64,000 bases of DNA from Candidatus Zixiibacteriota bacterium (GCA_024280835.1 JAJRPJ010000018.1:5390-69389), one strand, 5' to 3'; positions 11,190 to 48,409 are shown, counted from the stretch's first letter. The notes: generated from the sequence alone by a model not told the origin. A program made the numbers and translations.

Positions 11190-11190
11190 A

Positions 11191-11592
11191 CTAGTGATCC
11201 TTGTGCTCTTGACCAGTTACTTTGTTGTCTGTTGCTTTGGTGTTTGATTCTTTTGTGCCTTTGAAGACTCTCTTGGAAATACCGCACTTCAACATTTTGG
11301 TCCCATAGTATGGGTTCTGCGAATTACTGTCTCTCTGGAGCCATAGAGCGCCTTCGCCATCAAACGCCATTGGGCAGAAGAATTGATAGACAGAATTGTC
11401 ACCTACACCGTAGTTGTCCGCATAGGCAGTGATAGACATGGTCACGTGTTCAAAGTTCACCCGCGTTGAGCTAAGATCCTTTGAGCCAGCTACCAATTTT
11501 GAGGCTCTGAGGGCTTGGTTGGTGAGAGAGTCGAAGGTTGAATTGCCTTGGGCGGCTGAGCGGTCAACGGTAAAATCCATTAACACTTTCAT
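11191..11592 (-). CDS. DUF3347-type putative metal-binding protein (C-terminal part of the domain)
   Basis: YQFFCPMAFDGEGALWLQRDSNSQNPYYGTKMLKCG matches the CPM...WL...NPY.G..ML.CG signature I recall for DUF3347. The track start at 11595 is TTG. An ATG at 11592-11590 shares one base with the cusB TGA stop (TGATG). Confidence 0.7.
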   Translation of the reverse strand: MKVLMDFTVDRSAAQGNSTFDSLTNQALRASKLVAGSKDLSSTRVNFEHVTMSITAYADNYGVGDNSVYQFFCPMAFDGEGALWLQRDSNSQNPYYGTKMLKCGISKRVFKGTKESNTKATDNKVTGQEHKDH

Positions 11593-13142: not shown

Positions 13143-13196
13143 CTTAATATTTCTTTCTTGTATTTCGTAAAACTATCAGATTACCAAACGTTTCTA

Positions 13197-14570
13197 TTAA
13201 TTGGTTAGCTTGGCTCCAACAAGCGCCTCAATATTGGCGAGACTTTGTCTATGGATTGTCAATGAGCGTTCTAATGCTAGTAAATAGCCGAACAGCTCTC
13301 TTTGCAATTCTATTAGATTACGAAAATCCGTTTTTCCCGTCTGAAACTCTCGCTGGGTAACTGTCAGCGCTTGAGTCGCTCGGGGAATCATGGCATTCTC
13401 GTAAAGATCAATTTTTCGCAAAGCATTGCGATACATAAATAGCTTGGCGGAAAGCTCTGCAGAGAGCATGTTCTCTGTTTCTCTCCGAGATTCAAGCGCC
13501 GAGCGATTACGCGACTTGGCTTCGCGCTTTTCAGCTTTGTATTTCCCAAACCAAATTGGCAAACTCAAGCCGACTTTTGCAATAATCGGATCTTTGCCAC
13601 TTTCAAAAACACTTGAATTCAGAGCGTCATTGGTTTGAATGTAATCGACACCAAAAGTCAGATTTGGCGCCGCTCCACGATTGGCCAATTTCATGCCAGC
13701 GATTGTAGCGAGAACTAACTTGTCGCGCTCATGTAATACTGGGCTGCGTTCAACCGCCAGTTCCAATACCGCATCATCACTAATTGTCATCGACCTAACT
13801 ATTGGCTCGGTGTTCAACGCTACAATTGCATTGGGCTGACGATCTAGAACAGAATTGAATGCCACCAAGAGAGTGGCATACCGTTCCTTCTGGGTTTGCA
13901 AATCATCCGATAGACGCGCTTGCTCAATTTGCACTTGCGCCAATTTCCCTTGTGAGAGCAGGGCCGAACTATACTTCGCTAGGGCCACATTTTCCCATTC
14001 GTTGACTAGTGACAAGTGGTCTTGAACAATCGCAATTGATTTATCGATATAATAAAGCTCAAAATATATATTTGTAACCTGAGCTTCTAATTGCAATTTA
14101 CGAGCAATATATCTCTGCTCAGCGGCATTGGCTTTTTCGAGAGCGACTGATTTTCGCAATCCAAGTTTTCCAAACCAAGGCATTGACTGACTCAGAGAAA
14201 ATTTGCGCTGCTGCGCTCCAACCCGAGTTTCTACAGACTCAAATTGCTCAGCAAAGCCAATCTTCGGGTCTGGCAAAGCGCCCACTTGGGGCGCACGCGC
14301 CAATTCCGCTTGCCAGCGATGGAAAGCTGCGCTGATAGCGGGAGAATTCTCATCTGCATAGGACAAATAATCCGACAATGTCGATTCTTCACTCAGGGCT
14401 ATCGAACCTTCGTCTAAACGCTGCGCATTTGCAATTCCATAGACAAACGGAATCAGCATCAATCCGAGAACAATCGCACTTCGCAAATAGTATTTCAAAC
14501 AATTTTCGGTTTTGACTTTTGTGATAAACACAGTCACTTCTTTCCTCTCCATGATGCGGCATTGCATCAC
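13197..14570 (-). CDS. TolC-family outer membrane efflux protein (CusC-like)
   Basis: Two-repeat coiled-coil outer membrane efflux protein pattern, located immediately upstream of cusB. The true start may be an internal Met (MERKEV...). Confidence 0.8.
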   Translation of the reverse strand: MMQCRIMERKEVTVFITKVKTENCLKYYLRSAIVLGLMLIPFVYGIANAQRLDEGSIALSEESTLSDYLSYADENSPAISAAFHRWQAELARAPQVGALPDPKIGFAEQFESVETRVGAQQRKFSLSQSMPWFGKLGLRKSVALEKANAAEQRYIARKLQLEAQVTNIYFELYYIDKSIAIVQDHLSLVNEWENVALAKYSSALLSQGKLAQVQIEQARLSDDLQTQKERYATLLVAFNSVLDRQPNAIVALNTEPIVRSMTISDDAVLELAVERSPVLHERDKLVLATIAGMKLANRGAAPNLTFGVDYIQTNDALNSSVFESGKDPIIAKVGLSLPIWFGKYKAEKREAKSRNRSALESRRETENMLSAELSAKLFMYRNALRKIDLYENAMIPRATQALTVTQREFQTGKTDFRNLIELQRELFGYLLALERSLTIHRQSLANIEALVGAKLTN

Positions 14571-14710
14571 ACTGTTAATCTCGCCACCACAATCATCAGT
14601 GAATGATGTTATGGATACGTGTGTTTCCCAACAAATTGAAAAACATCTCGTGTCCCCATTCGCAATAATAGTTACACAAGAAAGAACAACCAGTTAAATA
14701 TGGAAAAGGA

Positions 14711-15337
14711 TCAGCAACGAAGCATTTGTGAACCGATACCCGAGAGAATAGATGGTTCAGCTGGAAGGATCGAGAAAGTCCACTTGGAATCTCTTACAGA
14801 GAATGAAGCGTCGGCCAAAGTAGAATAAACTTGGACGGTTGAGATCGTATTGTTCTGCCGCTCCTGCTCAAGACTACGTGGCGGAGGTGGTGGAATTGAT
14901 TTTGTATCATTCTGCAATTGCGAAGCACATGAGCCGAAATGGTCGCAGGATGCTTGTTTGGTATTTGTAGTTGCCGGCAAGCCTAGAATTGGGGAGATGG
15001 GGTCGGCATCAGATATCCGCAATTGCGCTGTTTCAGCTTCGCCAGTTGAGCAGCATGATGATTTTGATGTTTTGACTTTTTGTACTTCGACTTTTTTAGT
15101 TTCTTGGGAAGAATTCGAGCAACAACAAGAAGAACGCTCTGTATCGAACGCTCTATTAGATTGAGACATAGGGCATGAGCCACTATTACTAGTTACTTCT
15201 ACGACAGGGGCGTCGAGAGAACAACCGCCGCATGAACCAGCTACAATCGACGAAGCGGTTAAAGCAACGAGAGCTATAGTTGAGAACACGCGCAGTAGCG
15301 TCGAAGTTCTTAAATATGTGAAGATACTCTTGTTCAT
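14711..15337 (-). CDS. secreted/membrane-anchored cysteine-cluster protein, first gene of the cus operon
   Basis: Signal anchor LLRVFSTIALVALTASSIVAG, then SCGGCS, GSCPM, SSCCCS, SSCCS and SCDHFGSC clusters plus a PPPPP stretch. Co-directional with the TolC-like gene and 140 bp upstream of it. I recognise no family. Confidence 0.55.
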   Translation of the reverse strand: MNKSIFTYLRTSTLLRVFSTIALVALTASSIVAGSCGGCSLDAPVVEVTSNSGSCPMSQSNRAFDTERSSCCCSNSSQETKKVEVQKVKTSKSSCCSTGEAETAQLRISDADPISPILGLPATTNTKQASCDHFGSCASQLQNDTKSIPPPPPRSLEQERQNNTISTVQVYSTLADASFSVRDSKWTFSILPAEPSILSGIGSQMLRC

Positions 15338-15592
15338 CTTATGTTTTCTTGCGTGTCTCTTAACAACTTTTACACTGTCATAAACTCCGGCGCGAAATTC
15401 ACTTTCACACCGCTATCGTATATATCGGCAATCGGAGCGCTTTTGGCAACCTAATTCAATGCCATACCTTAACACCGACTAATTATATACATGAAATAGG
15501 AGTGATCGGTTCCATCTCCGACGAGTCATAATTTGGACAGATTTATTATGCACTCCCATTCATTGCCCTCTACACCTTACGTCTAAATAAGC

Positions 15593-15661
15593 AATTACTT
15601 GGCCAACGCTATGTCCAATAACAACTTAAATCTGGCCAACTTAATCTAATTACTTGACCAA
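15593..15661. promoter_or_regulatory. three copies of an AATTACTTGGCCAA-like motif (palindromic TTGGCCAA core)
   Basis: aattacttggccaa at 15593-15606, a partial copy (atctggccaa) ending at 15639, and aattacttgaccaa at 15648-15661. They lie between the dockerin-protein stop and the cus operon start. Confidence 0.25.
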
Positions 15662-15686
15662 TTTGAGTAAGTAGTTAGAAGAAATC

Positions 15687-16187
15687 TCAGAAAATCACAT
15701 CGATAAGACAAACCACATCGCTTATCTCTATGCGGCCGTTGCTGTTACAATCGCCCTGCTCGAGGCATTCAATGGCCTCCCCGCCTAGGAAGATATAGCT
15801 TATCAGAGCCACGATATCTGAGACATTTATGCGGCCATCATTGTTGACGTCATTTTGAACAGAACTACATAACGTAGAGCAACCTTCAGTTATCGTGTTT
15901 TGCCTTATACAACGACTCGAACAACCGCAAAAATAATTTGAGTCATGCCGACCAGTCACGTGCACTCGATCGCCTGCGCCAAAGCCAAAGTAATTATCGA
16001 GCGAGTAGATTCCTGGGTGATGATCTGGTGCAAAAACAAGACAGCCATCATTGGTTAGTCGCAATGACCCGCAATCATCAAAATTACCAGCCGCCCATAA
16101 GCTACTTGCACTGAACATCAGAGCCAGAGAAATGGCCCCAACGCTTGAAATCATTCTTGTAAGAAGTGTCTGTTTGTGAATCATCAT
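15687..16187 (-). CDS. small Cys-rich secreted protein with C-terminal dockerin-like module
   Basis: Signal peptide ISLALMFSASSLWAAG. The C-terminus carries duplicated EF-hand-like loops: DVNNDGRINVSDIVALISYIF and GDCNSNGRIEISDVVCLIDVIF. Confidence 0.6.
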   Translation of the reverse strand: MMIHKQTLLTRMISSVGAISLALMFSASSLWAAGNFDDCGSLRLTNDGCLVFAPDHHPGIYSLDNYFGFGAGDRVHVTGRHDSNYFCGCSSRCIRQNTITEGCSTLCSSVQNDVNNDGRINVSDIVALISYIFLGGEAIECLEQGDCNSNGRIEISDVVCLIDVIF

Positions 16188-16451
16188 AATTTGAATTGGT
16201 CGAAGAATGTCTTTAGAAGGAGCAATCAGCTCCGCTCGAAAACAATGATATTGAGCGCCGTAATCGGTAAGTTCTTGTGAAGAAGTGTTTCTGTGAGGAA
16301 AATTATCCTGAGACCGGAGTGACTCAGAATTACAGCAAACAATTAGTATTCAGACAGGTCTAAGACTTCTCTGCCGTCAAATTATACTCAACGCCCCGTA
16401 AAAGGTCAAATACATTTTTCCCAGCTCGTCGACTGGCCCATAGGCTCACAT

Positions 16452-16494
16452 ACAAGAAATCAAGAAGAGCAGGGTCAGTTTCCTAACCCTGCTC
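16452..16494 (-). terminator. rho-independent terminator of the 963-aa gene
   Basis: gagcagggt (16467-16475) pairs with accctgctc (16486-16494). On the minus strand the hairpin is followed by ttcttgatttctt. Confidence 0.6.
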
Positions 16495-16519
16495 TCGCAA
16501 TCAAATTCTGAAAACTTCA

Positions 16520-19411
16520 TCAAGTACCGGTCGTGCCACACACTGGAGCAGCTCCACCAGCAAATATGCGGGCTATACCAGCGGTTACATCGGCGATATT
16601 GAAAGTATTATCGCTATTGAAGTCGGCCTCATCCTGACAAAATGGAGCAGCGCCTCCACCAAAGATACGCGCTATCCCTGCTGTTACATCAGCGATATTA
16701 AAAGCTCCATCATGATTGAAGTCGCCTGGAGTAACGCAGCAGCCCGTTGCGCAAGCAGGATCTGCTGCGTCAATTAAGCTATTGCAATCATCGTCAATTC
16801 CATTACCACAGTCTTCAGTAGCCGAAGGATTGACCGCAGGATCTGAATCATCGCAATCAACACTGTTGGCGACAAAGCCAGTTGGTGGACCTGAGCAGGT
16901 TGAGGTAGCCAAAGCTGAGGCATCACCGAAACCGTCACCATCTGAATCAGGCCAATAGTCTGTGAAGAGAAGACCCTCGTCAATCAAGGAATTGCAATTA
17001 TTGTCTAGACCATCACAGGTTTCTATCGCGCCAGGGAAAACAGATGGATCGGAATCATCACAGTCGGTGTTATTAGTCGAGCTACTCGGAGGAGCGCTAC
17101 ACAAACAACCCAGCGGACTACTTGGATCACCAAATCCGTCACCGTCTGCGTCAGTGAAATACGGCGTACAGCCTACAGCGCCAACATTGTCAATAATAGC
17201 GTCACAGTCATTGTCCAGACCATCACAGATTTCAATCGCTCCAGGGAAGACACTCGGATCAGCGTCATCACAGTCACCAGCGCAGGTTGTAAAACCGTCA
17301 CTGTCTGCGTCGAATCCTTCGTCAATTAGTGAGTTACAGTTATTGTCTACTCCATCACAGACCTCCGTGCCCCCAGGAAAGACAGTTGGATCGGAATCAT
17401 CACAGTCACCAGCGCAAACACTAACACCGTCACCATCAGCATCAACATCATCTAGTGTAGCAGGGTCGCAATCATTGTCAATGCCATCGCACATAATCTC
17501 TGGAGCGCCTGGGAAAACAGATGGATCACCATCGTCGCAGTCACCTGCGCAGGTTGTAAACCCATCACCGTCAACGTCAAAACCTTCATCGACAACTAAA
17601 TCACAGTTATTGTCGATGCCATCACAGACTTCAACAGCTCCAGGGAATATTGTTGGGTCGGTATCATCACAGTCAATTGAACTCGGGAACCCATCGCAAT
17701 CGAAGTCTATATCTTTGACTGTCTCAAAGATTACATCTTGGTCAGCGCCATTGCGAGCATCGTTGAATGAAAAAGCTGGGGGTGTCATAAAAGTAAACCC
17801 AAAATCAGCTCCTAAGTAATCACCAGCCCATCCAGCGCCCGCTGGTCCTGGAGGACCTGCGAAAGTAGTCAGAGCTGGAACCGAACCCATATCGGAGACC
17901 AGCCCATCAACCCAAGTGACTCCACAGTCTCTCGAAGTTGAGGCCCAGACTTCCACGCCTGCGCCAGGGGCGCTGCGTTGATCATTATAGAGGATGCAAA
18001 TATCTCCCGTGTTGGGATCTTGCACCATCTTTGGCGCCCATTGCATAGCGCCAGTACCAGTTGGGTCACAGTTTACTCGGACTGGAGGCTTCCATGTCAA
18101 TCCACCGTCGGCTGATGAGCTGAACCAAATGTCTCCATCGCCAAGTGTCATGTCCGCCCAGCAAATGTAAACGCTTCCTGGGCAGGGTCCGAACTTATCA
18201 ACGACAAGTCCGACACCGCTGGTCGCCAAAATCGGTGGACCAGCTGGAATCACAGGAGGAATTGGAGGGCCTATGGGAACTGCTATCGGACCGGCGGGTA
18301 GCACGGCGAATGGCGCGCCAGCGCCTGGCGCTGGTGATGCATGCAAGAATATTCCCCCTGCAAGCGGGCTAAAGTGCGCCACATAGAGACCACCAGCGGG
18401 AACCAGAGGCGTTCCGCCTGGTCCAGCAAAGTCCACAGCGGGACGATGGTCTTGCGGAACTGGAGCGTTTATCGGTAGTATCGGAGATATTGGAACCGCT
18501 AGAGAAACGGCTGGAAAGAGAATAGCCCCAGCGAGCGTGTTTGAATACGCATACATTATTTCATAAGTATCTGCAGGATCATCAAATGGATTGCCATCTC
18601 CGTCGGGATCTCCGTCGCCATCAAAGTAATGCACCCAAGCCATGTGTGCTGTACCAAACTCTGGAGCCGGTGATGCAGGGTCGTCATTGACGACCATAAA
18701 TGGGTAATCCACCCAATCGGTACCAGGGCCAACTCCACCAGCAGCCATCATGATCGGAGGGCCAATCGGAGGTGGAAAAGGCGCTCCCCCACCAACGTTG
18801 GCGTTGATTTGAATCCCACTGGCTCCCAATTGGACAGGTGGCGCCACTAGCAAGGCGACACTGACTGACATGAATCCACCAAACGGATGAGCCGAAATTG
18901 TAGCATTGTATTCAAGCGGAAAGAAAGCTGGTGGCACGGGACCAAGATTTATCCAAGAACCAGGCACACCACCTGCAGCTGAGAACGCATGCCCAACTGA
19001 TATTGCCGCTGGGCCTGGCCCTGCCAGCTCGTTAAAGGTGGTGTAAACTTCGCCAGCGATTGTCTCACTCCATGAAACACTTGAGTTGTTATTCTCACCT
19101 GCAGGCGAAGGAGGCGCTCCGTGCACCAAGGCGTTTGGGCCCGCTGCCGTTATGGATTGATTTTGGGTATCGCCTTGAACTATTGGATCGACTTTCTCTG
19201 CTTGTGACTCAGCGGCACGTTGTTTCCAAAGAGCCACTAATTCGTCTATCGGCATTGCCTGCTTGCTTTTTTGTGTTACTGCTTCCGCCACCAGATTTAC
19301 TGACCCTAGAGCCATCCCCAGTAACAGTGACCACACTACAAAATACTTAGCTGTTTTCACCCTGCTCATCTCCTTTGTGATTGTCCGTACTAAAACGGTA
19401 CCAGCAATCAT
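16520..19411 (-). CDS. large secreted protein: P/G/A-rich N-half with BNR (SxDxGxTW) motifs, six MopE-type Cys/Asp repeats, C-terminal duplicated dockerin-like module
   Basis: BNR motifs SSSADGGLTW and STSRDCGVTW. Six copies of DCDDxDPxxxPGAxExCDGxDNxC. The tail is GDFNHDGAFNIADVTAGIARIF and DFNSDNTFNIADVTAGIARIF. The likely true start is GVG-type: a GTG at 19360 lies 9 nt after AAGGAG and gives the signal peptide (M)KTAKYFVVWSLLLGMALGSVNLVAEA. Confidence 0.75.
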   Translation of the reverse strand: MIAGTVLVRTITKEMSRVKTAKYFVVWSLLLGMALGSVNLVAEAVTQKSKQAMPIDELVALWKQRAAESQAEKVDPIVQGDTQNQSITAAGPNALVHGAPPSPAGENNNSSVSWSETIAGEVYTTFNELAGPGPAAISVGHAFSAAGGVPGSWINLGPVPPAFFPLEYNATISAHPFGGFMSVSVALLVAPPVQLGASGIQINANVGGGAPFPPPIGPPIMMAAGGVGPGTDWVDYPFMVVNDDPASPAPEFGTAHMAWVHYFDGDGDPDGDGNPFDDPADTYEIMYAYSNTLAGAILFPAVSLAVPISPILPINAPVPQDHRPAVDFAGPGGTPLVPAGGLYVAHFSPLAGGIFLHASPAPGAGAPFAVLPAGPIAVPIGPPIPPVIPAGPPILATSGVGLVVDKFGPCPGSVYICWADMTLGDGDIWFSSSADGGLTWKPPVRVNCDPTGTGAMQWAPKMVQDPNTGDICILYNDQRSAPGAGVEVWASTSRDCGVTWVDGLVSDMGSVPALTTFAGPPGPAGAGWAGDYLGADFGFTFMTPPAFSFNDARNGADQDVIFETVKDIDFDCDGFPSSIDCDDTDPTIFPGAVEVCDGIDNNCDLVVDEGFDVDGDGFTTCAGDCDDGDPSVFPGAPEIMCDGIDNDCDPATLDDVDADGDGVSVCAGDCDDSDPTVFPGGTEVCDGVDNNCNSLIDEGFDADSDGFTTCAGDCDDADPSVFPGAIEICDGLDNDCDAIIDNVGAVGCTPYFTDADGDGFGDPSSPLGCLCSAPPSSSTNNTDCDDSDPSVFPGAIETCDGLDNNCNSLIDEGLLFTDYWPDSDGDGFGDASALATSTCSGPPTGFVANSVDCDDSDPAVNPSATEDCGNGIDDDCNSLIDAADPACATGCCVTPGDFNHDGAFNIADVTAGIARIFGGGAAPFCQDEADFNSDNTFNIADVTAGIARIFAGGAAPVCGTTGT
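16751..17713 (-). repeat. in-frame coding tandem repeats (six MopE-type putative metal-binding motifs)
   Basis: A 321-aa segment of the 963-aa protein. The repeat periodicity is also visible at DNA level, and it generates the long antisense ORF 16962..17819. Confidence 0.7.
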
Positions 19412-19851: not shown

Positions 19852-20859
19852 CTATGCGCCTGGCTTGTGGACTGTCCAGATGGAGTCAGTGAAGAAACGC
19901 CGTGAATCGAAAAGCATTTTGTTCACTCGAAAACCAGTTTCGGCAGCAAGAACCTTGACTTCAGACTCAAGATATTTGTAGGAATATTCAGTGTGAATAG
20001 GCTCCCATTCGCGGAAACTAAAAGAACGTCCGATTGTCTCTATATAGACATCCTGATCTTCCATACTGACTAAGAAACTTTCCATCGCGCCATTGAAGAC
20101 ATTATAGGTTCCATAGTGTCGGAACTTATTCAAATCAAATGTTCCACCAAGTTCACGGTTGATCCTGACAAGCAAATTCAAATTGAATTGCGCAGTGACA
20201 CCAGCTACGTCATTATAGGCTAGTAGTAGCGCTTCAATATCTTTCTTCAAATCGAAACCAGTTAGGAGACAATCTTCGTGATTCAATGAGTTCCAAACAT
20301 TGCGCAAGAATGTTCGGGCGCCCGCATGGTTAAAGTTCCCGATGCTTGAGCCAAGGAACAAGACGAAATTGCGTCGTTCATTGCGATTGTTGAGCCATTT
20401 GATACCATTGAAATATTCTGAAACTAGGCCATTGGTCTCTACTTCAGGCATTGTCTCTTTTAGGTCACTGACCAACTCTATCATGGCTCCCTCAGAGATA
20501 TCTATTGGGACGTATTGAAATTCAAGGTCAAGTTCGGTGAACCTCTTCAAGAGTATTTTTGTCTTTTCGCCAATGCCAGCGCCGAGTTCAACCAAATTGA
20601 AAGCTACACCGTTGAATTGTTGGGCGATCTCGTCTGCGTACTTGACCAGAATCTCTCGCTCACAATCTGTCGGATAGTAATCTGGCGACTTAGTGATGGC
20701 AGTAAACAATTCACTTCCAGCGCTATCATACAAATATTTTGATGATAGAGATTTATGAGTTTCAGACAAACCGACTAAGACATCAAGCGCAAAAGCTTGA
20801 TTGGCGTCGAATGAGTCCTCAAAATCTTTTGGGTCTAGTTTCTTATATGTTATAGACAT
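19852..20859 (-). CDS. egtD: L-histidine N-alpha-methyltransferase (ergothioneine biosynthesis)
   Basis: SSKYLYDSAGSELFTAITKSPDYYPTDCEREIL matches the EgtD signature (K.FYD..GS.LF..I...PEYY.TR.E..IL). Length is 335 aa, and it lies directly downstream of the EgtB-like gene. Confidence 0.85.
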   Translation of the reverse strand: MSITYKKLDPKDFEDSFDANQAFALDVLVGLSETHKSLSSKYLYDSAGSELFTAITKSPDYYPTDCEREILVKYADEIAQQFNGVAFNLVELGAGIGEKTKILLKRFTELDLEFQYVPIDISEGAMIELVSDLKETMPEVETNGLVSEYFNGIKWLNNRNERRNFVLFLGSSIGNFNHAGARTFLRNVWNSLNHEDCLLTGFDLKKDIEALLLAYNDVAGVTAQFNLNLLVRINRELGGTFDLNKFRHYGTYNVFNGAMESFLVSMEDQDVYIETIGRSFSFREWEPIHTEYSYKYLESEVKVLAAETGFRVNKMLFDSRRFFTDSIWTVHKPGA

Positions 20860-20993
20860 GTGCCGTTACTTATTCTCTTGAGTGTGATTTGTGAGTTTGG
20901 GCGGGATTTGAGATGACTCAATCAGATGTATATTGTTTTGAAATTTCAGATTGAGCCAAGTTTGAACTGAGCCTTAATTAAATTGAATCTTCC

Positions 20994-22397
20994 TTAAACA
21001 TTGTCTGCCAAGCGAATTCCAGTCATCTGCCAGCGTTTGTCACATTGGAAAAAGCTTCTATATGTTGTGCGCACGTGTGACTTAGGTGTCAGACATGACC
21101 CACCGCGAAGAACCATCTGGTCGGACATAAACTTGCCATTATACTCACCCAATGGTCCAGCTTCTTGCTTGTAACCAGGATATGCTAAGTAAGAACTAGC
21201 AGTCCACTCCCAAACATCACCAAACATTTGACTAAGTGACATATCGTTTTTTCCGCAAACTGGATTATCGGCTGTCGGATGTAAGATGCTTTTTTCAACA
21301 AAATTGCCATCACGTTGGATTTCATCAAGAGTCTCGGCGGCGAATTCCCACTCCATTTCTGTTGGTAGGCGTTTTCCAGCCCAACGGGCGAAAGCCCAGC
21401 TTTCGTAGTAACTAACATGACAGACTGGCTCAGCGAGGTTCAATGGCCGCGTTCCCGAAAGTGTATTGATTGTCCAACCTGATTCTGTCTTTTCCCAATA
21501 CATCGGATGGCGCCATATCTTGCTCGGTACCCTCCCCCAAGCATCGGCAAGCCAGAGACTAGGGTTATCGTATCCGCCATCATTGATAAACTCAAGAAAC
21601 TCCCCACAGGTGACTAGGCGAGGCAATAGCTTGAAGTCCTCAAGATATACTTTGTGACGTGGCGATTCATTGTCGTAGGTAAACTTTGCTCCGCTGGAGT
21701 CTGCGTTATCGGCTCCGACTTCGACTAGGCCGCCTTTGAAGGTCAGATAATGATTACGAAGGAAAGGTGTCTTATCATTTGAAGTTGACGCAACAGGCTC
21801 TAAGTAAGCTGGCTGTAGGGGATTTGAAGCGAAGACATGCTTGATATCACTCAGTAACAATTCTTGATGCTGCTGCTCGTGATTAAAACCAATTTTGAAT
21901 AGAGAATATATTTCGTTCCATGACTTTTCAGCAACGGTTGCAATAAATTTCTCTACTCGCTCATCTATCGCCGCACGGTATTCCATTATTTCTGGAACAG
22001 TTGGACGCGACAATGTTCCACGCAGGGGACGATCCGCCTGTTGGCCAAGCGAATTATAATAAGAATTGAAGATGTAATAATATTTCTCGTTAAAGGGGCG
22101 GTAATTGGGGCTGAACTGCTGGAGTATTACTCGCTCGAAGAACCACGTTACATGCGCCAAGTGCCATTTAGCGGGGCTCGTATCGTCCATTGACTGGACA
22201 ACACAATCCTCTGGTTGCAGGGGCGCGGCCAGCTTCTTGGTTTGCGCCCTGACAGCCTTGAACTCTTCTAATAGTTCTTTGCGGCACTGGTCGATAGATT
22301 CAATTGCTTGCGACATGTCATTTACCTGTTCTGTATACCTGGTTTCCCAGCAATCCTTCTGCTTTTGTATATTGGTAAAATAAATTTCATCAGTCAA
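20994..22397 (-). CDS. egtB: ergothioneine biosynthesis sulfoxide synthase EgtB (DinB_2 + FGE-sulfatase domains)
   Basis: SPAKWHLAHVTWFFERVIL is the DinB-type iron site. GDVWEWTASSYLAYPGYK...VLRGGSCLTPKSHVRTTYRSFF is the FGE-like domain. At 467 aa with no fused methyltransferase domain, it is EgtB rather than OvoA. Confidence 0.85.
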   Translation of the reverse strand: MTDEIYFTNIQKQKDCWETRYTEQVNDMSQAIESIDQCRKELLEEFKAVRAQTKKLAAPLQPEDCVVQSMDDTSPAKWHLAHVTWFFERVILQQFSPNYRPFNEKYYYIFNSYYNSLGQQADRPLRGTLSRPTVPEIMEYRAAIDERVEKFIATVAEKSWNEIYSLFKIGFNHEQQHQELLLSDIKHVFASNPLQPAYLEPVASTSNDKTPFLRNHYLTFKGGLVEVGADNADSSGAKFTYDNESPRHKVYLEDFKLLPRLVTCGEFLEFINDGGYDNPSLWLADAWGRVPSKIWRHPMYWEKTESGWTINTLSGTRPLNLAEPVCHVSYYESWAFARWAGKRLPTEMEWEFAAETLDEIQRDGNFVEKSILHPTADNPVCGKNDMSLSQMFGDVWEWTASSYLAYPGYKQEAGPLGEYNGKFMSDQMVLRGGSCLTPKSHVRTTYRSFFQCDKRWQMTGIRLADNV

Positions 22398-22505
22398 GCG
22401 CTCTCAGACAATCATTCTTCAAAAAATCGTTCCCGCGAAAATAATACTTTGGAAAAGCCAAATGGTGAGCGCTGGCAATCACTTTTGCTTCACAATCTTG
22501 AGAGT

Positions 22506-24020
22506 CTATTGACTGAAAATCGCGCGGCGTAATTGTTTAGCGCTTTCACTGACAGAGCGGTTATCGAGGTCAACGGCCTTGTTTGCTGAGCGCATTTCTT
22601 CAGCGGTAATTTTTCCGATGATGACATTCAGGGCTTCAATCAATCGTTGATTACTCGATGCTCGCGGTGAAAGCAACAGAGTTGCGTCATATGGGGGTAG
22701 GGCCTGCTGTGGATCGGTGAGGGTTACTAAATCAAAGGCGGCGATGCTGCCATCGGTTGAATAGGCGGCGATAACATTGACGGCATCTTCATTTATTGCG
22801 GCATACATTAGGCTGTGATCCATGCTGACTAAGTCAGTAAAATTGAGACGATAGGTATCACGCAACGACACCCATTCTGGTCGGCCAAAGAATTCATAGT
22901 CACTGCCCATTTTCATATTTCGTGAATAGGAGCTCAAATCCGAGACACTTACAATTTTGTTATTCTCAGCGAATTCTCGCGGAATAGCCAAAGCGTATGT
23001 ATTCTCAAAGCCCAAAGCTCCAAGACAAAGGACTTGATGCTGATCCATCAGCCATTTGGTTAGCTCCACGAGTACGGTGTCACCTTTGGGAACGCTTTTT
23101 CTCTGCATGTAGTTGGCCCAAATCGTACCAGAATAGTCTACATAACAATCGACTTCATTATTGGTTAGCGCTTCGAATAAAATCGTTGAGCCCATTCCCG
23201 AGCGAACCTCGATTTCAAAACCAGCGTCGGTCAGAATTTCGCTCATCATTTCAGAGAGTACATATTGTTCGGTGAAAGTTTTGGCGCCAATAACTATACG
23301 CTCTGCGCCAGTGTTGCTATTGTATCGCTCATATAGTGGAGACATCCCCAGCAAAGCCAATAGAAGCAGGCCGACACTGGTGCCGATAGCTAGAGTTTTT
23401 TTTCGTTGGCTGGCTGCGTATTCAATCAGGTGAATAAATTGATCTAGGATAATCGCCAAAGCCGCAGCGCTGGCGCTGCCGACAATCACTGCTGTGTAAT
23501 TTTGTGTTTGCAGGCCACTGAAAATGTAGTTGCCTAAAGAAGTCGCTCCGACAGGTGTCGCCAAGGTTGCTGTGCCGACTATCCAGACTGCAGAAGTGCG
23601 AATTCCTGCTATGATAACTGGCGCGGCAAGTGGTAATTCTACGAGTCGCAGTATTTGCATTGAGGTCATGCCTGACCCACGCGCCGCTTCTGTTAGAGAG
23701 GAATCAATATCAAGAATACCAGTCACTGTGTTTCTAATCATCGGTAGCATACTATAGAGAACTAAAGCTATCAGTGCAGGCAAAGCCCCAATTTGTCCGA
23801 GCAATGGCACCATCAAAGCTAACATGGCAATGCCTGGTATGGTTTGCAGAATGCTGGCGATAGTCATCACTGGCCATTGCAAGGCTTTGACACGTGTAAC
23901 TAGCGCCGCCAGTGGCAAGCAGATGATTATTCCAATCGCTAGCGCTGTTAGTGTCAGTGCGATATGATGCGAGAGGTAGTTTGGTAATAACGCCAACTGT
24001 TCGGCAAGACGTTCGCTCAT
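22506..24020 (-). CDS. ABC transporter, fused permease + OpuAC-type substrate-binding domain (quaternary-amine / EgtU-like architecture)
   Basis: The N-terminal half is a BPD-type permease (ASILQTIPGIAMLALMVPL...). The C-terminal half, RIVIGAKTFTEQYVLSEMMSEIL...DCYVDYSGTIWANYM, resembles OpuBC/OpuCC-type binding domains. Confidence 0.85.
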   Translation of the reverse strand: MSERLAEQLALLPNYLSHHIALTLTALAIGIIICLPLAALVTRVKALQWPVMTIASILQTIPGIAMLALMVPLLGQIGALPALIALVLYSMLPMIRNTVTGILDIDSSLTEAARGSGMTSMQILRLVELPLAAPVIIAGIRTSAVWIVGTATLATPVGATSLGNYIFSGLQTQNYTAVIVGSASAAALAIILDQFIHLIEYAASQRKKTLAIGTSVGLLLLALLGMSPLYERYNSNTGAERIVIGAKTFTEQYVLSEMMSEILTDAGFEIEVRSGMGSTILFEALTNNEVDCYVDYSGTIWANYMQRKSVPKGDTVLVELTKWLMDQHQVLCLGALGFENTYALAIPREFAENNKIVSVSDLSSYSRNMKMGSDYEFFGRPEWVSLRDTYRLNFTDLVSMDHSLMYAAINEDAVNVIAAYSTDGSIAAFDLVTLTDPQQALPPYDATLLLSPRASSNQRLIEALNVIIGKITAEEMRSANKAVDLDNRSVSESAKQLRRAIFSQ

Positions 24021-24802
24021 TGACTATCTGCGCTTTCGGATTGTTGCAGAAGTTTAGTAAGGGCATTCATTTGATTGACAGGAGTCTCAAGGAGGCGCTG
24101 TGCATAGGGATGCCCAGGATTTTGCAAAATATTTGCTGGTGTGTCGAGACGCACTATTTTGCCTTTCTCCATAACTGCGATTCTATCGGCAAGTGTCAGC
24201 GCTTCGCTCATATCGTGCGTCACCAAGATAATTGTCATTGACATTAGCTTGTGAAGTCGAGTTAACTCTTTCTGGAGTCCTGAGCGTGTCAATGGATCCA
24301 ACGCCCCGAATGGTTCATCCATGAGCATCACCGATGGAGCAACCGCCAAAGCCCGAGCGACACCAATTCTCTGCTGCTGTCCACCAGAGAGTTCACGCGG
24401 AAACCTATTGCGCAGCCCATCAGGGTTTAGCTCAACCATTTGCAGAAGCTCTGTCACCCGTGAGTGCATTCTCTCAGCGCTCCAGCCCAACAAACGTGGA
24501 GTAATCGATATATTCTCAGCGACTGTCATATGTGGAAACAAACCGATTTCCTGAAAGACATAGCCGATACGTCGCCTGAGAGTCACAGGATCAAGAGCGA
24601 GTATGTTTTCGCCATCGATTTCGATTGACCCTGCGCTAGGCTCAATCAACCGATTAATCATTTTCAAGGTTGTGGTTTTACCACAACCAGATTCACCAAC
24701 AAGAGCCAGTAGTTCACCACTCTTGATTTCAAGATCGATACTGTCGACAGCGAATGTTGCCTCGTCATCATATGATTTGGATATGTTCTTTAGATTGATC
24801 AT
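24017..24802 (-). CDS. ABC transporter ATP-binding protein (short OpuCA/ProV-like, no CBS tail)
   Basis: Walker A GESGCGKTT, signature LSGGQQQRIGVARAL, Walker B LLMDEPFGALD. A 4-nt overlap (24017-24020) links it to the permease gene. Confidence 0.9.
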   Translation of the reverse strand: MINLKNISKSYDDEATFAVDSIDLEIKSGELLALVGESGCGKTTTLKMINRLIEPSAGSIEIDGENILALDPVTLRRRIGYVFQEIGLFPHMTVAENISITPRLLGWSAERMHSRVTELLQMVELNPDGLRNRFPRELSGGQQQRIGVARALAVAPSVMLMDEPFGALDPLTRSGLQKELTRLHKLMSMTIILVTHDMSEALTLADRIAVMEKGKIVRLDTPANILQNPGHPYAQRLLETPVNQMNALTKLLQQSESADSQ

Positions 24803-25002: not shown

Positions 25003-26580
25003 ATGAAGCATGTTATCTATTCCAAGATTGTCACAACGTTCCTTGCGGCGGTAGGCGTATTGGCCCTTACAACCTGCTCGACATCCCCCATTGGTAGAGA
25101 CACTTTCAACCCAACAGAAGTTTCCCAAGAAGGTTGGCAGTATCAGAACCCAACAACAACTGGAAGAAATCTCACTGGCGTTCAATTCGTTACAGAGACT
25201 CTGGTGTGGGCGGTTGGCGCTAGGGGTGTTGCTGTAAAGTCTATTGACGGAGGAACTACTTGGAGAAAGATTGACATTGACGTTAATCTCTCTTTAAGCG
25301 ATGTCTATTTTATTGATTCAGAAGATGGCTGGATTGTCGGAGATAATGGCACAATCATGAGGACTACTGACGGGGGTATTTCATGGCAGACACAGACCTC
25401 GGAAACAACACGCGCACTGAACTCTGTCAAATTCACAGATAGAGAGCATGGTTGCGCTGTTGGTGACGCTGGAACAATCCTAGTTACTGACAATGGGGGG
25501 CTGACTTGGAAATACACGTACAATTCATACAGCGCCTTACACTCCGTCGAATTTGCAGATTCCAAGATCGGATACGCAGTAGGCGAACGAAGTACCGTCC
25601 TGAAGACTACCAACGGGGGCCATAGCTGGGAGCGACTACCTACTGGGGTAACTGATTTTTGGGATGGCTTCTTCCGAGACATAGTCGTCACAGATAGCTT
25701 ACATGTAAGTGTTATTGGTTGGGGCAACATCCTCGTTAGAACCGATGACGGCGGGATTAGCTGGGACATTCTTAGGCCTCCAATGCCATCTCGGAGTTTT
25801 GGATTGGAGTCTTCACCTGACGGTGTTCTGTACCTCGTTGGGTGGGCTGGAGTTTGGGAGTCAAAAGATAGCGGCTCTTCTTGGTCGCTAGCTACAGCAA
25901 GACAGCAAAACCTTGACGCTCTTGCAATATCTCCAAGTGGAGCTTTGTGCGCTGTCGGAAGGAACGGTCACATATTTGTGCGAGGCGCTAATTCGAAGAC
26001 TTGGTCTAGACCAAATAGAGTTACTTTCTATGACCTATCAGACGTGTTTTTTGTTAATCGTTTTGAGGGTTGGGTTGTCGGAGCATTGGGAGAGATACTC
26101 ACAACAAGCGACAAAGGAAAAACTTGGCTCACACAAGAGAGTGGTACTGATGAGTTTCTTCACTCTGTACATTTCATAAACCGATCGCATGGCTGGTGCG
26201 CAGGGTCCAACGGAACAGTGCTGAGAACTACCAATGGTGGCCTTGTATGGTCAGAGTACCAAATCATTGGCGCTCCCAATATCGTTCAAATATTTTTTGT
26301 CGATGAGAAACGCGGCTGGGCAGTCGGCAGGTTCAAAGGAGTTTATTCAACAATAGATGGAGGGGAATCATGGACTTTGTCTGAGAGCACGCCCCAAGTG
26401 TATCTAAACTCCGTGTACTTCATCGATGAATTCCATGGGACAACGGTAGGCGGTAGTGGGGAGATTATGCGGACAACTGACGGCGGAAGAACTTGGATGT
26501 TGATTGAAAACCCCGACCCAGGCCAAAGCTTCACTAGCGTAACATTCGTCGATTCACGCCACGGTTGGATAGCAGGCTGA
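25003..26580 (+). CDS. BNR/Ycf48-like beta-propeller repeat lipoprotein, N-terminal 525 codons up to an in-frame TGA
   Basis: Signal sequence with Cys (AAVGVLALTTCS). About nine repeats of G(W)xVGxxGxIxxTxDGGxSW. Confidence 0.8.
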   Translation: MKHVIYSKIVTTFLAAVGVLALTTCSTSPIGRDTFNPTEVSQEGWQYQNPTTTGRNLTGVQFVTETLVWAVGARGVAVKSIDGGTTWRKIDIDVNLSLSDVYFIDSEDGWIVGDNGTIMRTTDGGISWQTQTSETTRALNSVKFTDREHGCAVGDAGTILVTDNGGLTWKYTYNSYSALHSVEFADSKIGYAVGERSTVLKTTNGGHSWERLPTGVTDFWDGFFRDIVVTDSLHVSVIGWGNILVRTDDGGISWDILRPPMPSRSFGLESSPDGVLYLVGWAGVWESKDSGSSWSLATARQQNLDALAISPSGALCAVGRNGHIFVRGANSKTWSRPNRVTFYDLSDVFFVNRFEGWVVGALGEILTTSDKGKTWLTQESGTDEFLHSVHFINRSHGWCAGSNGTVLRTTNGGLVWSEYQIIGAPNIVQIFFVDEKRGWAVGRFKGVYSTIDGGESWTLSESTPQVYLNSVYFIDEFHGTTVGGSGEIMRTTDGGRTWMLIENPDPGQSFTSVTFVDSRHGWIAG

Positions 26581-26625: not shown

Positions 26626-26913
26626 GTGGCCTCTGGCGCTTATGGAATCACTGGCGATTGGCCGCTCATAAGCGATATAAGTTTCACTGACTCATTGCAT
26701 GGCTGGATGGTTGTAACTCCTGGAGGTGGAGACTGGGTCTTCAAAAAGACCATTGATGGCGGTCTGACATGGACTGGAGACAGTTATGGTGTTGGCCCGC
26801 TCCATGCTATTCATTTCATTGACAACAACAATGGCTGGGCCGTGGGATGGAATGGCAATATACTTCATACTCCTGATGGTGGAACAAGCCTCGACGGAAT
26901 CAGACCTCGTTAA
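26626..26913 (+). CDS. continuation of the BNR/Ycf48-like propeller (same frame as 25003..26580)
   Basis: Both ORFs are in frame 1. The 45 nt between them translate GNTVLRTEDGGASWS, which completes the interrupted repeat. The track start here is a GTG. Confidence 0.6.
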   Translation: MASGAYGITGDWPLISDISFTDSLHGWMVVTPGGGDWVFKKTIDGGLTWTGDSYGVGPLHAIHFIDNNNGWAVGWNGNILHTPDGGTSLDGIRPR

Positions 26914-27443
26914 GTTATATTCTTCAGTAATCTCTTCATCACTGCTATCTGGCCTTTGTGATGCGCTTCATGCTCTAAAACATGATAGAGTATCCATTCA
27001 ATCGTAAAACGTTTTTTGGCGTTTGTGTCGTCACCAGGGTCGAGCGGAATTATTTCTCTTTGCAAGTCAGCATCGGTTAGTTTCGCAAGGATTGTTTTGC
27101 TTTCGGCGCGCGTCTTTTTGAGAATGTTCAAGAAGTACGGCAGGTCTTTGCCAGAAATTTGCGGAAGTTTAAACCTGAGTGCAAATGCAGGCATCCATTC
27201 TTCACCCATGGGCTTTCGTCCAATGTCTTCACCAATCCATGAGCGTTCGACACCTGCTATGTGTAGCAACAATGTCCCAATTGATTCACAGTCTTGATTC
27301 GGATACCACGCTAATTGCTGGTCAACCATTCCTGAAACATACTTTTCGATACGCTCACTGACATCATCCATCATCGTCAAATAAGCTCCGATACGAGGAG
27401 AAAATCCAGCCAGTGGTTTTACATTGTAGAGTTCTGGTCCCAT
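26910..27443 (-). CDS. DinB-family (four-helix bundle, putative metal-dependent) protein
   Basis: IGTLLLHIAGVERSW ... ILYHVLEHEAHHKGQI has the His pattern typical of the DinB/YfiT superfamily. Confidence 0.75.
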   Translation of the reverse strand: MGPELYNVKPLAGFSPRIGAYLTMMDDVSERIEKYVSGMVDQQLAWYPNQDCESIGTLLLHIAGVERSWIGEDIGRKPMGEEWMPAFALRFKLPQISGKDLPYFLNILKKTRAESKTILAKLTDADLQREIIPLDPGDDTNAKKRFTIEWILYHVLEHEAHHKGQIAVMKRLLKNIT

Positions 27444-27455
27444 ATCGCCACTTCC

Positions 27456-28208
27456 TCAAGCCTCATCACTGCCTCCATGTTTGTCTTTGAGTTCGCGTAA
27501 TTTTACTTCACCAAGTGGCTCTGCATGCTTAATACGTACACTTTCAGAAAGTTCTTTGCGGAAATCACGATTATAGCGAACATTGAACCAAGCTACAACA
27601 AGCACAGTTACCAAAGCGCCAAGTGTCGCCAGGCCCATATCTTTGTGTGCATCCCAAACATCACCTTGTGAACCCAAGAACGCCATGCCCAAGTCACCGC
27701 CAACAGTCTCTGCGGCCGCCCACTCGACAAGTTCATAGATCATAGAGAGCGACATCACCCACTCAAGCGGAAAATAATAACTCCAAGCCCCACGAGTATC
27801 AGCGACACGGGCAAAAATTTCTAGGACAGGATAGGCTAGCAACAATCCAAAAGAGAAATGCACTACTCTGTCAAAATTGTTGCGTGTGAAACCAAAGATG
27901 TCGTTGAGAGAAAACCCTAAAGTCGCTGTCCATTGTTCGTAGGGCACTTCGGCGTATGTATAATGCGAACCGATTGCATGCAGGCAAAGAAAGATGAGCA
28001 TGAGAGTATAGGAAATATTACTGAAGCGAAATTTTTTACGTGTCCAAATTAGCGCTGGTACAAAGAGAACAGGCAGAATGTTCTCAAGTATCCAGTCAGG
28101 CATATCCCATGGCTGATAGGCCCAAAGCGCCCACCAAAGGACATAGAAGATTAACAACTTCGTGCGGTATTCAATTCGTTGTCTAGACATCGCTTTTAGG
28201 ATACACAA
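27456..28208 (-). CDS. DUF2238 (YjdF-like) membrane protein
   Basis: A multi-TM protein with LHAIGSHYTYAEVPYEQW...FTRNNFDRVVHFSFGLLL, which matches my memory of the YjdF/DUF2238 core. The start may be the internal MSRQRIEY. Confidence 0.6.
   Translation of the reverse strand: MCILKAMSRQRIEYRTKLLIFYVLWWALWAYQPWDMPDWILENILPVLFVPALIWTRKKFRFSNISYTLMLIFLCLHAIGSHYTYAEVPYEQWTATLGFSLNDIFGFTRNNFDRVVHFSFGLLLAYPVLEIFARVADTRGAWSYYFPLEWVMSLSMIYELVEWAAAETVGGDLGMAFLGSQGDVWDAHKDMGLATLGALVTVLVVAWFNVRYNRDFRKELSESVRIKHAEPLGEVKLRELKDKHGGSDEA

Positions 28209-48332: not shown

Positions 48333-48409
<77 letters not shown>

Follow-up and report, generated by a model that had tools for sequence, protein, structure and literature searches.

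A betaine-type ABC transporter linked to ergothioneine biosynthesis genes: a candidate importer for ergothioneine and/or hercynine

The gene cluster and its spacers

Four co-directional genes lie close together on the minus strand of a 64,000-nucleotide stretch of DNA from a Candidatus Zixiibacteriota bacterium, here termed the window. They encode the CBS-less ATPase of an ABC transporter (24017..24802; 261 amino acids), a fused permease and OpuAC-type binding protein (22506..24020; 504 amino acids), EgtB, a type II (cysteine-using) sulfoxide synthase (20994..22316; 440 amino acids from an ATG at 22316), and EgtD, the L-histidine N-alpha-methyltransferase that makes hercynine (19852..20859; 335 amino acids). 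An earlier note on this DNA had described these four open reading frames, and all are present, as is the 4 nt overlap between the ATPase and permease genes (24017-24020). The gaps of 108 and 134 nt that it gave hold for mechanically called reading frames, but the first gap is likelier to be 189 nt. The mechanical egtB reading frame spans 20994..22397 (467 amino acids), and its TTG start, probably false, lies within a CTTGAC box. The ATG at 22316 is the more likely start, since homologues are 433-446 amino acids in length.

At the protein level, the only real domain found in the ATPase by Pfam search is PF00005 (ABC_tran, 129 bits), and a CBS domain is absent. The best NCBIfam match is the proV subfamily model TIGR01186, at 305.6 bits over model positions 6-232 of 363 only. 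The permease-binding protein displays BPD_transp_1 at residues 37-199 and OpuAC at 241-496 (Pfam), a layout in which a TMD (residues ~1-215) is followed by a substrate-binding domain (~238-500). Thus, the EgtUV-like architecture proposed earlier, a fused TMD-SBD protein plus a CBS-less ATPase, is present; the fused architecture alone is common to transporters of other or unknown specificity (PMC9732360).

The identities of both biosynthetic enzymes stood up to profile search, with scores above the NCBIfam equivalog cutoffs. EgtB scores 540 bits with TIGR03440 (cutoff 360), and EgtD passes narrowly with TIGR03438 (302.1 bits, cutoff 290.9) and scores 324 bits with PF10017. EgtB has DinB_2 and FGE-sulfatase domains (Pfam). 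Its nearest solved relative is the EgtB of Chloracidobacterium thermophilum (6qki/8qf6), at 445 bits versus 96 bits for mycobacterial EgtB (4x8b), in keeping with the cysteine type that had been assigned. The FNSYY and HEQQHQE motifs align with C. thermophilum EgtB, and their Tyr-Tyr and His residues are presumably catalytic. As previously noted, no egtE is seen among the cluster genes. The open reading frame at 55295..56527 encodes a Cys_Met_Meta_PP enzyme adjoining a PALP enzyme (Pfam), and a dedicated EgtE in the window was rejected on the Pfam results.

A DinB/MST-family protein of 177 amino acids (26910..27443, minus strand; PF04978 MST 63 bits, DinB_2 57 bits in Pfam searches) is possibly associated with the cluster. 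At the locus of an 81% identical relative, genes for DUF2238, DinB and the ATPase follow one another, with a gap of 39 nt, and the DinB gene immediately precedes that of the ATPase in the same orientation. In the window, a plus-strand gene (25003..26580) intervenes between the DinB/MST and ATPase genes. The association is weak.

The spacers contain nothing terminator-like on the minus strand, in agreement with the lack of a hairpin terminator reported earlier. None of the three spacers folds better than shuffled controls, and no structured RNA or terminator is seen in them. A scan for sigma-70 promoters and terminators gave no minus-strand match in the spacers, and an Rfam scan of the whole window found only a tRNA; neither a riboswitch nor a leader was seen close to the four genes. 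Cross-locus comparison revealed a promoter-like element before egtB that had escaped the sigma-70 scan (22369..22398, minus strand). It consists of CTTGAC (22398..22393), with a -35-like TTGACT (22397..22392), a 17-nt spacer and CAATAT (22374..22369). CTTGAC is invariant in the egtB spacers of the window and of loci L002, L050 and L135, where the surrounding sequence has diverged, and TTGAC is also found in L054 and L073; within the window's subclade, five loci conserve the CTTGAC box ahead of egtB. This conservation suggests an internal promoter for egtB, and egtBD is probably transcribed from a promoter of its own as well. Because the conserved box precedes egtB, a single four-gene transcript is unproven and the single-operon argument for the window is weakened. 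Certain other loci have junctions of 13 nt or an overlap.

Linkage of transporter and ergothioneine genes across loci

The recurrence of the gene linkage was assessed at 86 loci whose transporters are 43-81% identical to that of the window, a locus being termed linked when EgtD and/or EgtB or the anaerobic synthase MES is encoded within the fetched flank. Linkage is found at 22 of the 86 loci, at 11 of 16 in the tier of at least 53% identity, and at seven of the 24 with flanks of 2.5 kb or more on each side. Approximately three quarters of the sampled loci in the 43-81% tier are not linked. A contig scan with a single protein, which returned mostly ~35% identical relatives and skipped the 45-65% tier, provided a negative control; ergothioneine genes are found within 10 kb at none of these 46 loci (22/86 versus 0/46, Fisher P = 3.8e-5). 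By chance, linkage would be expected at fewer than 0.5 of the 86 loci. The linked loci are from records labelled Zixibacteria, Acidobacteriota, Ignavibacteriales and Gemmatimonas, and range in GC content from 47 to 71%. The linkage is no local accident and recurs in relatives, in several gene orders.

These gene orders vary. The transporter genes are followed by egtB-egtD or by egtD-MES (L053, L056 and L139), and in L087 they follow egtB-egtD after a 13-nt gap. In L110, egtD overlaps the ATPase gene, and L134 has a convergent arrangement. MES, which replaces EgtB at three Zixibacteria loci, is a Molybdopterin/Aminotran_5 fusion of 1135-1139 amino acids in these related Zixibacteria, and in the L053 copy the cysteines are spaced as in CaMES (PMC9516567). 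At a further locus, L070, the sulfur-insertion enzyme is a distant EgtB-like protein. Thus, EgtD is the constant partner, and the variable one is type II EgtB, MES or the EgtB-like protein. With EgtD constant and the sulfur-insertion enzyme changing, hercynine or ergothioneine appears to be the common denominator. Functional coupling between transporter and pathway, as had been surmised from the window, is supported by linkage conserved across phyla, gene orders and sulfur-insertion enzymes.

Clustering of neighbouring genes points to the same partners. EgtD (18 loci) and EgtB (12 loci) lead, and no other real family is found at more than four loci; three large apparent families (neighbour clusters 3, 5 and 6) proved to be antisense reading-frame artefacts of high-GC DNA and were set aside. 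No Pfam family appears more than twice among 85 direct neighbours of unlinked transporters. Genes for betaine/choline catabolism, ergothionase or osmotic functions do not recur beside the unlinked members, and those for betaine/choline catabolism are not found there at all. In the reverse direction, the transporter was found starting from EgtD (L135) and from MES (L139), and was absent at three of four sampled EgtD loci and at the Scalindua MES locus.

The binding pocket and the candidate cargo

The nearest solved relative of the binding domain is ProX of A. fulgidus (AfProX, 1sw1), with 174 bits, versus 107-129 bits for EgtU domains. The window clade is monophyletic in 100/100 bootstraps and, among the included references, is sister to AfProX in 99/100. 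This grouping is at odds with the equation of the domain with EgtU that was implied earlier, as are the residues at the determinants of S. pneumoniae-type EgtU, with Phe249 for Gly244, Tyr296 for Phe293 and Phe338 for Tyr337. The pocket is made up of K247, T248, F249, Y296, T299, F338, E339, N340, Y342, E376, R380, H402, Y420 and Y444. Pocket columns are invariant or nearly so among 113 homologues and also among 87 loci, and at least 90% of the 113 have Phe at position 249. Residue 420 is Tyr in the window and Phe in many clade members, whose residue 248 also varies (T, P, S, G, N or A). Linked and unlinked members have one and the same pocket, and a search for binding-domain columns that separate the two found no pocket column that differs. 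Columns 276 and 281 and TMD positions were considered as linkage markers and rejected, as they follow one subclade and are confounded by phylogeny.

S. pneumoniae EgtU (SpEgtU) binds ergothioneine with a Kd of ~60 nM and discriminates against hercynine by about 10,000-fold; its affinity is lowered about 100-fold by G244F and about 10-fold by F293Y. H. pylori EgtU, with a Ka for ergothioneine of 5e5 per M, has the same Tyr/Phe pair as the window protein and Ser rather than Gly at the 244 position. The pocket states of the window protein are thus compatible with ergothioneine, since H. pylori EgtU binds it with the same pair and without Gly244. In addition, G244F costs SpEgtU only about 100-fold from ~60 nM, and ergothioneine binding is not excluded by a Phe at this position. 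The Y-to-F switch, Phe at position 293 together with Tyr at 337, is absent from H. pylori EgtU as well and so marks only the S. pneumoniae-type subcluster.

We propose, with a probability of about one half, that the transporter imports ergothioneine and/or hercynine into producers, in recapture or scavenging. The ATPase and the fused permease/binding protein would make up a type I, binding-protein-dependent ABC importer whose substrate is a quaternary-ammonium carboxylate, the direction being read from the fused extracytoplasmic binding domain. An aromatic cage is formed by Y296, Y342, Y420 and Y444, with N340 at the position of the SpEgtU cage base, and Lys247/Arg380/Thr299 make up a carboxylate clamp. 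The predicted cargo is a histidine betaine, ergothioneine and/or hercynine, the latter its desulfurised form and precursor; such a cargo is the most likely because the clade's only conserved genomic partners are ergothioneine biosynthesis genes. EgtD would convert His to hercynine, type II EgtB would form hercynylcysteine sulfoxide from hercynine, cysteine and O2, and an unlinked PLP C-S lyase would complete ergothioneine. The importer may then recapture leaked product or hercynine, or scavenge both from the community. Several observations count against this proposal. The pocket does not distinguish linked from unlinked members, most of the sampled loci are unlinked, and the transporter is missing from most of the EgtD loci sampled and from the Scalindua MES locus. 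AfProX, the nearest relative, is a glycine/proline-betaine binder, and Phe249 and Tyr296 correspond to the affinity-lowering G244F and F293Y of SpEgtU. Nor can histidine-betaine binding simply be assumed, because SpEgtU so strongly rejects hercynine.

The principal competing explanation, which we consider somewhat doubtful, is that of a generic AfProX-type osmoprotectant importer for glycine and/or proline betaine, co-located and perhaps co-regulated with the pathway in a stress module and never carrying ergothioneine or hercynine. The sister relationship to AfProX, the same four-Tyr cage and the Phe at the AfProX F15 position would be so explained, as would the identical pocket of many unlinked members, which stand alone as two-gene units in unrelated surroundings. 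At the linked locus L125, moreover, the transporter and an EgtD-like gene are paired with a divergent MscK-type mechanosensitive channel, a hint of osmotic function, and in engineered C. glutamicum the production of ergothioneine is modulated by osmotic pressure (PMC12689799). However, it is unexpected for such an importer to persist beside egtD down to ~45% identity, in several gene orders and after replacement of the sulfur-insertion enzyme, and at the sampled loci betaine synthesis or catabolism genes never accompany the clade. ATPases of ProU/OpuA-type osmoprotectant importers carry CBS domains, whereas that of the window has none.

Two other explanations are less probable. Adjacency might have no function, having arisen by ancestral chance juxtaposition followed by vertical inheritance and slow decay. 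Most clade members are unlinked, and identity to the window falls in parallel for transporter and EgtD (81/84, 65/70, 58/62, down to 47/38%), as it would for one ancient co-inherited block. Yet adjacency that is neutral rarely outlasts divergence to ~45% protein identity and GC contents that range from 47 to 71%; despite rearrangement the genes are still adjacent, with 13-nt junctions and an overlap, both EgtB and MES serve as partners inside one phylum, and flanking genes are otherwise not conserved. Chance juxtaposition is therefore regarded as improbable. It can also be asked whether ergothioneine leaves the producer through this system. Mycobacteria are among the producers that release the compound, and no organism is known to have a dedicated exporter for it (PMC12689799), which makes a producer-linked transporter a natural candidate. 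Export was rejected on architecture and is given very little credence: the permease joins a BPD_transp_1 type I importer domain and an extracytoplasmic binding domain in one protein, and the solved relatives (OpuA 7ahc, MetI and EgtU) are importers. In general, ABC transporters built in this way work as importers.

In bacteria, EgtU is so far the only ergothioneine transporter known. A literature search, whose coverage did not extend to the H. pylori Cell 2022 paper, found no report of an ABC importer linked to ergothioneine genes. The clade is a concrete and cheaply testable candidate for producer-side uptake or recycling, because its only conserved partner is ergothioneine biosynthesis, both aerobic (EgtB) and anaerobic (MES). 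If an ergothioneine importer, it would imply that the residue signatures of S. pneumoniae EgtU cannot serve to exclude ergothioneine transport. More tentatively, and at somewhat less than even odds, the AfProX-like clade may be a second family of importers for ergothioneine and/or hercynine, evolved independently in environmental producers (Zixibacteria, Acidobacteriota and others) and co-inherited with three sulfur-insertion chemistries. Ergothioneine recapture, or re-import of hercynine (an oxidation product) for re-sulfurisation, would then be integral to bacterial ergothioneine physiology, and the published EgtU signature would miss a large share of ergothioneine transporters. Should the transporter instead import osmoprotectants, several environmental phyla would have ergothioneine synthesis and betaine uptake organised together in a stress module.

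Comparison with known systems

The biosynthetic genes resemble known pathways. The window has the two-gene egtB-egtD pathway with a type II EgtB of the C. thermophilum kind, and the related Zixibacteria loci with egtD and MES resemble the anaerobic pathway of Caldithrix abyssi (PMC9516567). A linked ABC importer is not mentioned in the literature consulted for these two pathways. The OpuF-type fused TMD-SBD proteins of Bacillus and C. difficile and other subclusters of "SSN cluster 2" (Zhang et al., 2022), compared here by description, are likewise fused and without the G244 and Y-to-F determinants (PMC9732360). In that work they are described as unknown or relaxed in specificity and, unlike the window clade, have no reported link to ergothioneine genes (PMC9732360).

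AfProX (PDB 1sw1/1sw2) and the window domain share the aromatic cage, Y63, Y111, Y190 and Y214 of AfProX corresponding to Y296, Y342, Y420 and Y444. Lys13/Thr66/Arg149 likewise correspond to K247/T299/R380, and F15 to F249. AfProX differs in that it aligns only to window residues ~238-495, the window domain being fused to a permease. The window protein has Asn340, the EgtU state, for Asp109, and Glu339 for Arg108, and the genomic partners of its clade are ergothioneine genes.

EgtU/EgtUV systems (S. pneumoniae SPD_1642-1643, L. monocytogenes BilE and H. pylori) are likewise encoded by two genes, for a CBS-less ATPase and a fused TMD and OpuAC-type domain. K242, T296, N339, Y341, R379, Y419 and Y443 of SpEgtU are equivalent to K247, T299, N340, Y342, R380, Y420 and Y444 of the window protein, and H. 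pylori EgtU shares with it the Tyr and the Phe that stand for F293 and Y337 of SpEgtU. In contrast, the binding domains are only ~29-33% identical, and EgtU is not the nearest relative. Phe249 stands where EgtU of the S. pneumoniae type always has Gly and that of H. pylori has Ser, and the residue that contacts the thione sulfur is Ile or Pro in EgtU but variable at the equivalent position 248 in the window clade. In the EgtU literature consulted the transporter is framed as serving bacteria unable to synthesise ergothioneine, whereas the window clade is found in producers, beside the biosynthesis genes.

Importers by which producers recapture their own solutes include TeaABC (ectoine, Halomonas), GgtABCD (glucosylglycerol, Synechocystis) and OpuE (proline, B. 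subtilis). The transporter families and solutes differ from those considered here, and recapture by the window's system is proposed from gene context only. The likeness is that the producer of a solute would also run a high-affinity importer that recovers leakage.

The four-gene string and its surroundings

Four co-directional genes on the minus strand, described in the earlier note as an ABC ATPase, a fused permease-OpuAC protein, egtB and egtD, are present exactly as claimed, and Pfam and NCBIfam models agree on them. The ATPase (24017..24802, 261 aa) has ABC_tran as its sole Pfam domain; its match to the NCBIfam proV model covers only the first 232 of 363 positions, and thus it has no CBS tail. 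Its gene overlaps by 4 nt that of a 504 aa protein (22506..24020) in which a permease, BPD_transp_1 (residues 37-199), is fused to a substrate-binding domain, OpuAC (residues 241-496). EgtB (20994..22397, 467 aa as the longest ORF) and EgtD (19852..20859, 335 aa) hold under profile search, with 540 bits against an equivalog cutoff of 360 and 302 bits against 290.9, respectively. EgtB scores 445 bits to the Chloracidobacterium thermophilum enzyme vs 96 bits to its mycobacterial counterpart, and its FNSYY and HEQQH motifs align with those of the former; by sequence it is assigned to the type II, cysteine-using kind. As had been stated, the string contains no egtE-like C-S lyase gene. The nearest candidate for the missing lyase step, a 410 aa Cys_Met_Meta_PP enzyme (55295..56527), shows no tie to the egt genes. 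It is paired, with an overlap of ∼30 nt, with a 340 aa PALP enzyme, and the two (54303..56527) are a generic transsulfuration pair.

Since homologues measure 433-446 aa, egtB probably begins with the ATG at 22316. The gap of ∼108 nt previously given after the transporter is correct for the mechanical ORF, but with this start the spacer becomes 189 nt. A CTTGAC box in the spacer (22392..22398 region) is invariant in four loci whose surrounding sequence has diverged, and it is also found in L054, a relative's locus. It is followed by a 17-nt spacer and then an A/T-rich hexamer, and probably represents an internal promoter or operator. The TTG of the box acts as a false start codon for the 467 aa ORF; longest-ORF annotation would extend the N-terminus of EgtB by about 27 residues that do not belong to it. 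Terminator search and folding reveal no terminator-like site or stable hairpin between the four genes, as the earlier note had reported, and read-through from the transporter genes into egtBD is possible. An Rfam scan of the 64-kb window shows nothing near the cluster, its sole match being one tRNA gene (48333..48406).

Upstream of the ATPase gene are genes for a 177 aa DinB/MST-family (mycothiol-S-transferase-like) protein (26910..27443) and a DUF2238 membrane protein (27456..28208). In an 81% identical relative (L001), these two genes immediately precede the ATPase gene in the same orientation, with a gap of 39 nt. Both may be part of the transporter-egt unit, and a thiol transferase adjoining a thiol pathway is suggestive. 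Between the DinB and ATPase genes, the window has a plus-strand gene for a 525 aa Ycf48/BNR-repeat protein (25003..26580), followed by a plus-strand BNR-like ORF (26626..26913). Both are absent from the syntenic position in L001 and therefore look like an insertion or rearrangement. Downstream of egtD is a gene for a 963 aa MopE-type copper-binding repeat protein (16520..19411), and after it a CusCBA-like efflux set consisting of OEP, a CusB-like protein with a heavy-metal-binding domain, and ACR_tran (7257..19411 overall). MopE-type genes are found near egtD elsewhere, as the next gene in L135 (5511-8399) and about 3.9 kb downstream in L050 (10633-11229). Since ergothioneine chelates copper, a copper/oxidative-stress island is possible downstream of egtD.

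Linkage to ergothioneine genes in relatives

The main result is the conserved linkage of this transporter clade to egt genes, i.e., EgtD and/or EgtB or MES, the anaerobic metallopterin-dependent ergothioneine synthase. Relatives that carry a name place the window's genome close to Zixibacteria. Scanning metagenomes with an alignment of 113 sequences added 80 loci. In the neighbourhood survey, egt genes are found within the available flank at 22 of 86 clade loci, and EgtB or EgtD within 10 kb at none of 46 loci of ∼35% identical relatives (Acidobacteriaceae, Firmicutes EgtU-type and Thermotogae; Fisher P = 3.8e-5). The proportion is 7/24 where at least 2.5 kb is available on each side and 11/16 in the tier of at least 53% identity. 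Conversely, the transporter is present at one of four sampled EgtD loci and one of two MES loci, and is therefore a common, though optional, accessory.

The four-gene string is unchanged in the 81% relatives. In one of these, labelled Ignavibacteriales (L003:7626-9155), the permease-SBD match ends at residue 437 and frames overlap egtB; the frameshift means that the gene is a pseudogene or that the assembly is wrong there. At 55-66% identity, the ATPase, the permease-SBD fusion, EgtB and EgtD are all retained in P0009 and an Acidobacteriota MAG. A complete Zixibacteria genome has the ATPase, the fusion and EgtD, then a 1135 aa Molybdopterin + Aminotran_5 fusion whose cysteines 16/19/23/50, 155 and 1073/1096/1134 agree in spacing with conserved residues of the Caldithrix MES (PMC9516567). 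The transporter is unlinked in one Zixibacteria relative. Gene order varies: the transporter precedes egtBD or egtD-MES (L053, L056, L139), egtBD precedes the transporter with a 13-nt junction (L087), egtD overlaps the ATPase gene (L110), or the arrangement is convergent (L134). Linked loci range from 47 to 71% GC, and their record labels include Zixibacteria, Acidobacteriota, Ignavibacteriales and Gemmatimonas.

At L070 (3333-5644), egtD and, after it, the gene for a 512 aa DinB_2 + FGE-sulfatase protein precede a transporter of the same clade; only 25% identical to the window EgtB, this protein is by its sequence a sulfoxide synthase of another type. At L125 (2438-8004), an EgtD-like methyltransferase (Methyltransf_33, 297 bits; 31% identical to the window EgtD) immediately precedes the transporter pair, and EgtB and MES queries detect no sulfur-insertion enzyme in the fetched flanks. 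A divergent 1156 aa MscK-type mechanosensitive channel is also present, and the locus might have an osmotic role based on hercynine alone or on another amino-acid betaine. The Candidatus Scalindua locus L140 (2666-9393) has a CstA-family transporter, not the ABC importer, ahead of egtD-MES. Homologues of MES occur widely in anammox bacteria, Nitrospirota and Desulfobacteria.

When 643 neighbouring ORFs are clustered, EgtD (18 loci) and EgtB (12 loci) come out foremost; with antisense artefacts removed, every other family occurs at no more than four loci. The unlinked transporters have 85 immediate neighbours, and among these no Pfam family appears more than twice. A glutathione-reductase-like flavoprotein (∼461-464 aa, Pyr_redox_2 + Pyr_redox_dim) directly follows egtD in three independent loci (L054:11103-12497, L058 and L138:7060-8445), one of which lacks both EgtB and the transporter. 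The protein may be a reductase acting on ergothioneine disulfide or on some other low-molecular-weight thiol.

The binding domain

In comparisons with solved structures, the window binding domain scores 174 bits to Archaeoglobus fulgidus ProX (AfProX), a glycine/proline-betaine binder, 129 to Listeria BilEB (LmEgtU), 118 to Helicobacter pylori EgtU, 107 to Streptococcus pneumoniae EgtU and about 90 to OpuBC and OpuCC. By neighbour-joining, the window's clade is monophyletic (100/100 bootstraps), with AfProX as its sister among the included references (99/100). The EgtU papers report that Gly244 is invariant among S. pneumoniae-type EgtU proteins and that G244F lowers affinity ∼100-fold; F293Y, which alters the "Y-to-F switch" of Phe293 and Tyr337, lowers it ∼10-fold. 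Unlike these proteins, the window protein has no equivalents of Gly244, Phe293 and Tyr337, but displays the AfProX states Phe249, Tyr296 and Phe338. It does share with EgtU the Asn340 state and the universal Lys/Arg/Thr clamp. The signature of the window's clade reads K-x-F, Y296 and F-E-N-x-Y. Distantly related Firmicutes loci in the set carry the canonical EgtU signature (K-L-G, F, Y-x-N-x-Y), which indicates that the alignment reads the pocket positions correctly. Judged by alignment and phylogeny, then, the domain is not EgtU-like, and the equation with EgtU implied by the earlier note is not supported, although its gene calls and the coupling of transporter to egt genes are.

The sulfur-proximal residues differ between the two characterized EgtUs. 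H. pylori EgtU has the same Tyr/Phe pair and Ser for Gly and still binds ergothioneine (Ka 5e5 per M), and the specificity of subclusters without these determinants is stated to be unknown (PMC9732360). For both reasons ergothioneine is a possible ligand. Pocket columns have the same states in linked and unlinked clade members, and no binding-domain column separates the two once subclade structure is considered.

Function of the transporter

Homology of the binding domain points to a small-betaine binder, whereas gene context points to ergothioneine. The homology favours a generic importer of betaines, retained as part of a stress module together with ergothioneine synthesis, a possible but rather doubtful explanation; the clade's neighbours include no genes for making or breaking down betaine or choline. 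Context is given more weight because the egt association survived deep divergence, changes of gene order and the exchange of one sulfur-insertion enzyme for another, because nothing but egt genes gives a contextual signal for the clade, and because H. pylori EgtU binds ergothioneine without the S. pneumoniae-type determinants. An inherited adjacency devoid of meaning seems improbable, and export by this OpuAC-bearing transporter very improbable indeed.

EgtD is the constant partner, and therefore the metabolite in common is hercynine or ergothioneine. With a probability of about 0.5, the transporter would import ergothioneine and/or hercynine in producers, perhaps for recapture of leaked product or for scavenging. 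No description of an egt-linked ABC importer was found in the literature searched. The clade combines an AfProX-like binding domain with the architecture of EgtU, in an importer genomically coupled to ergothioneine biosynthesis.
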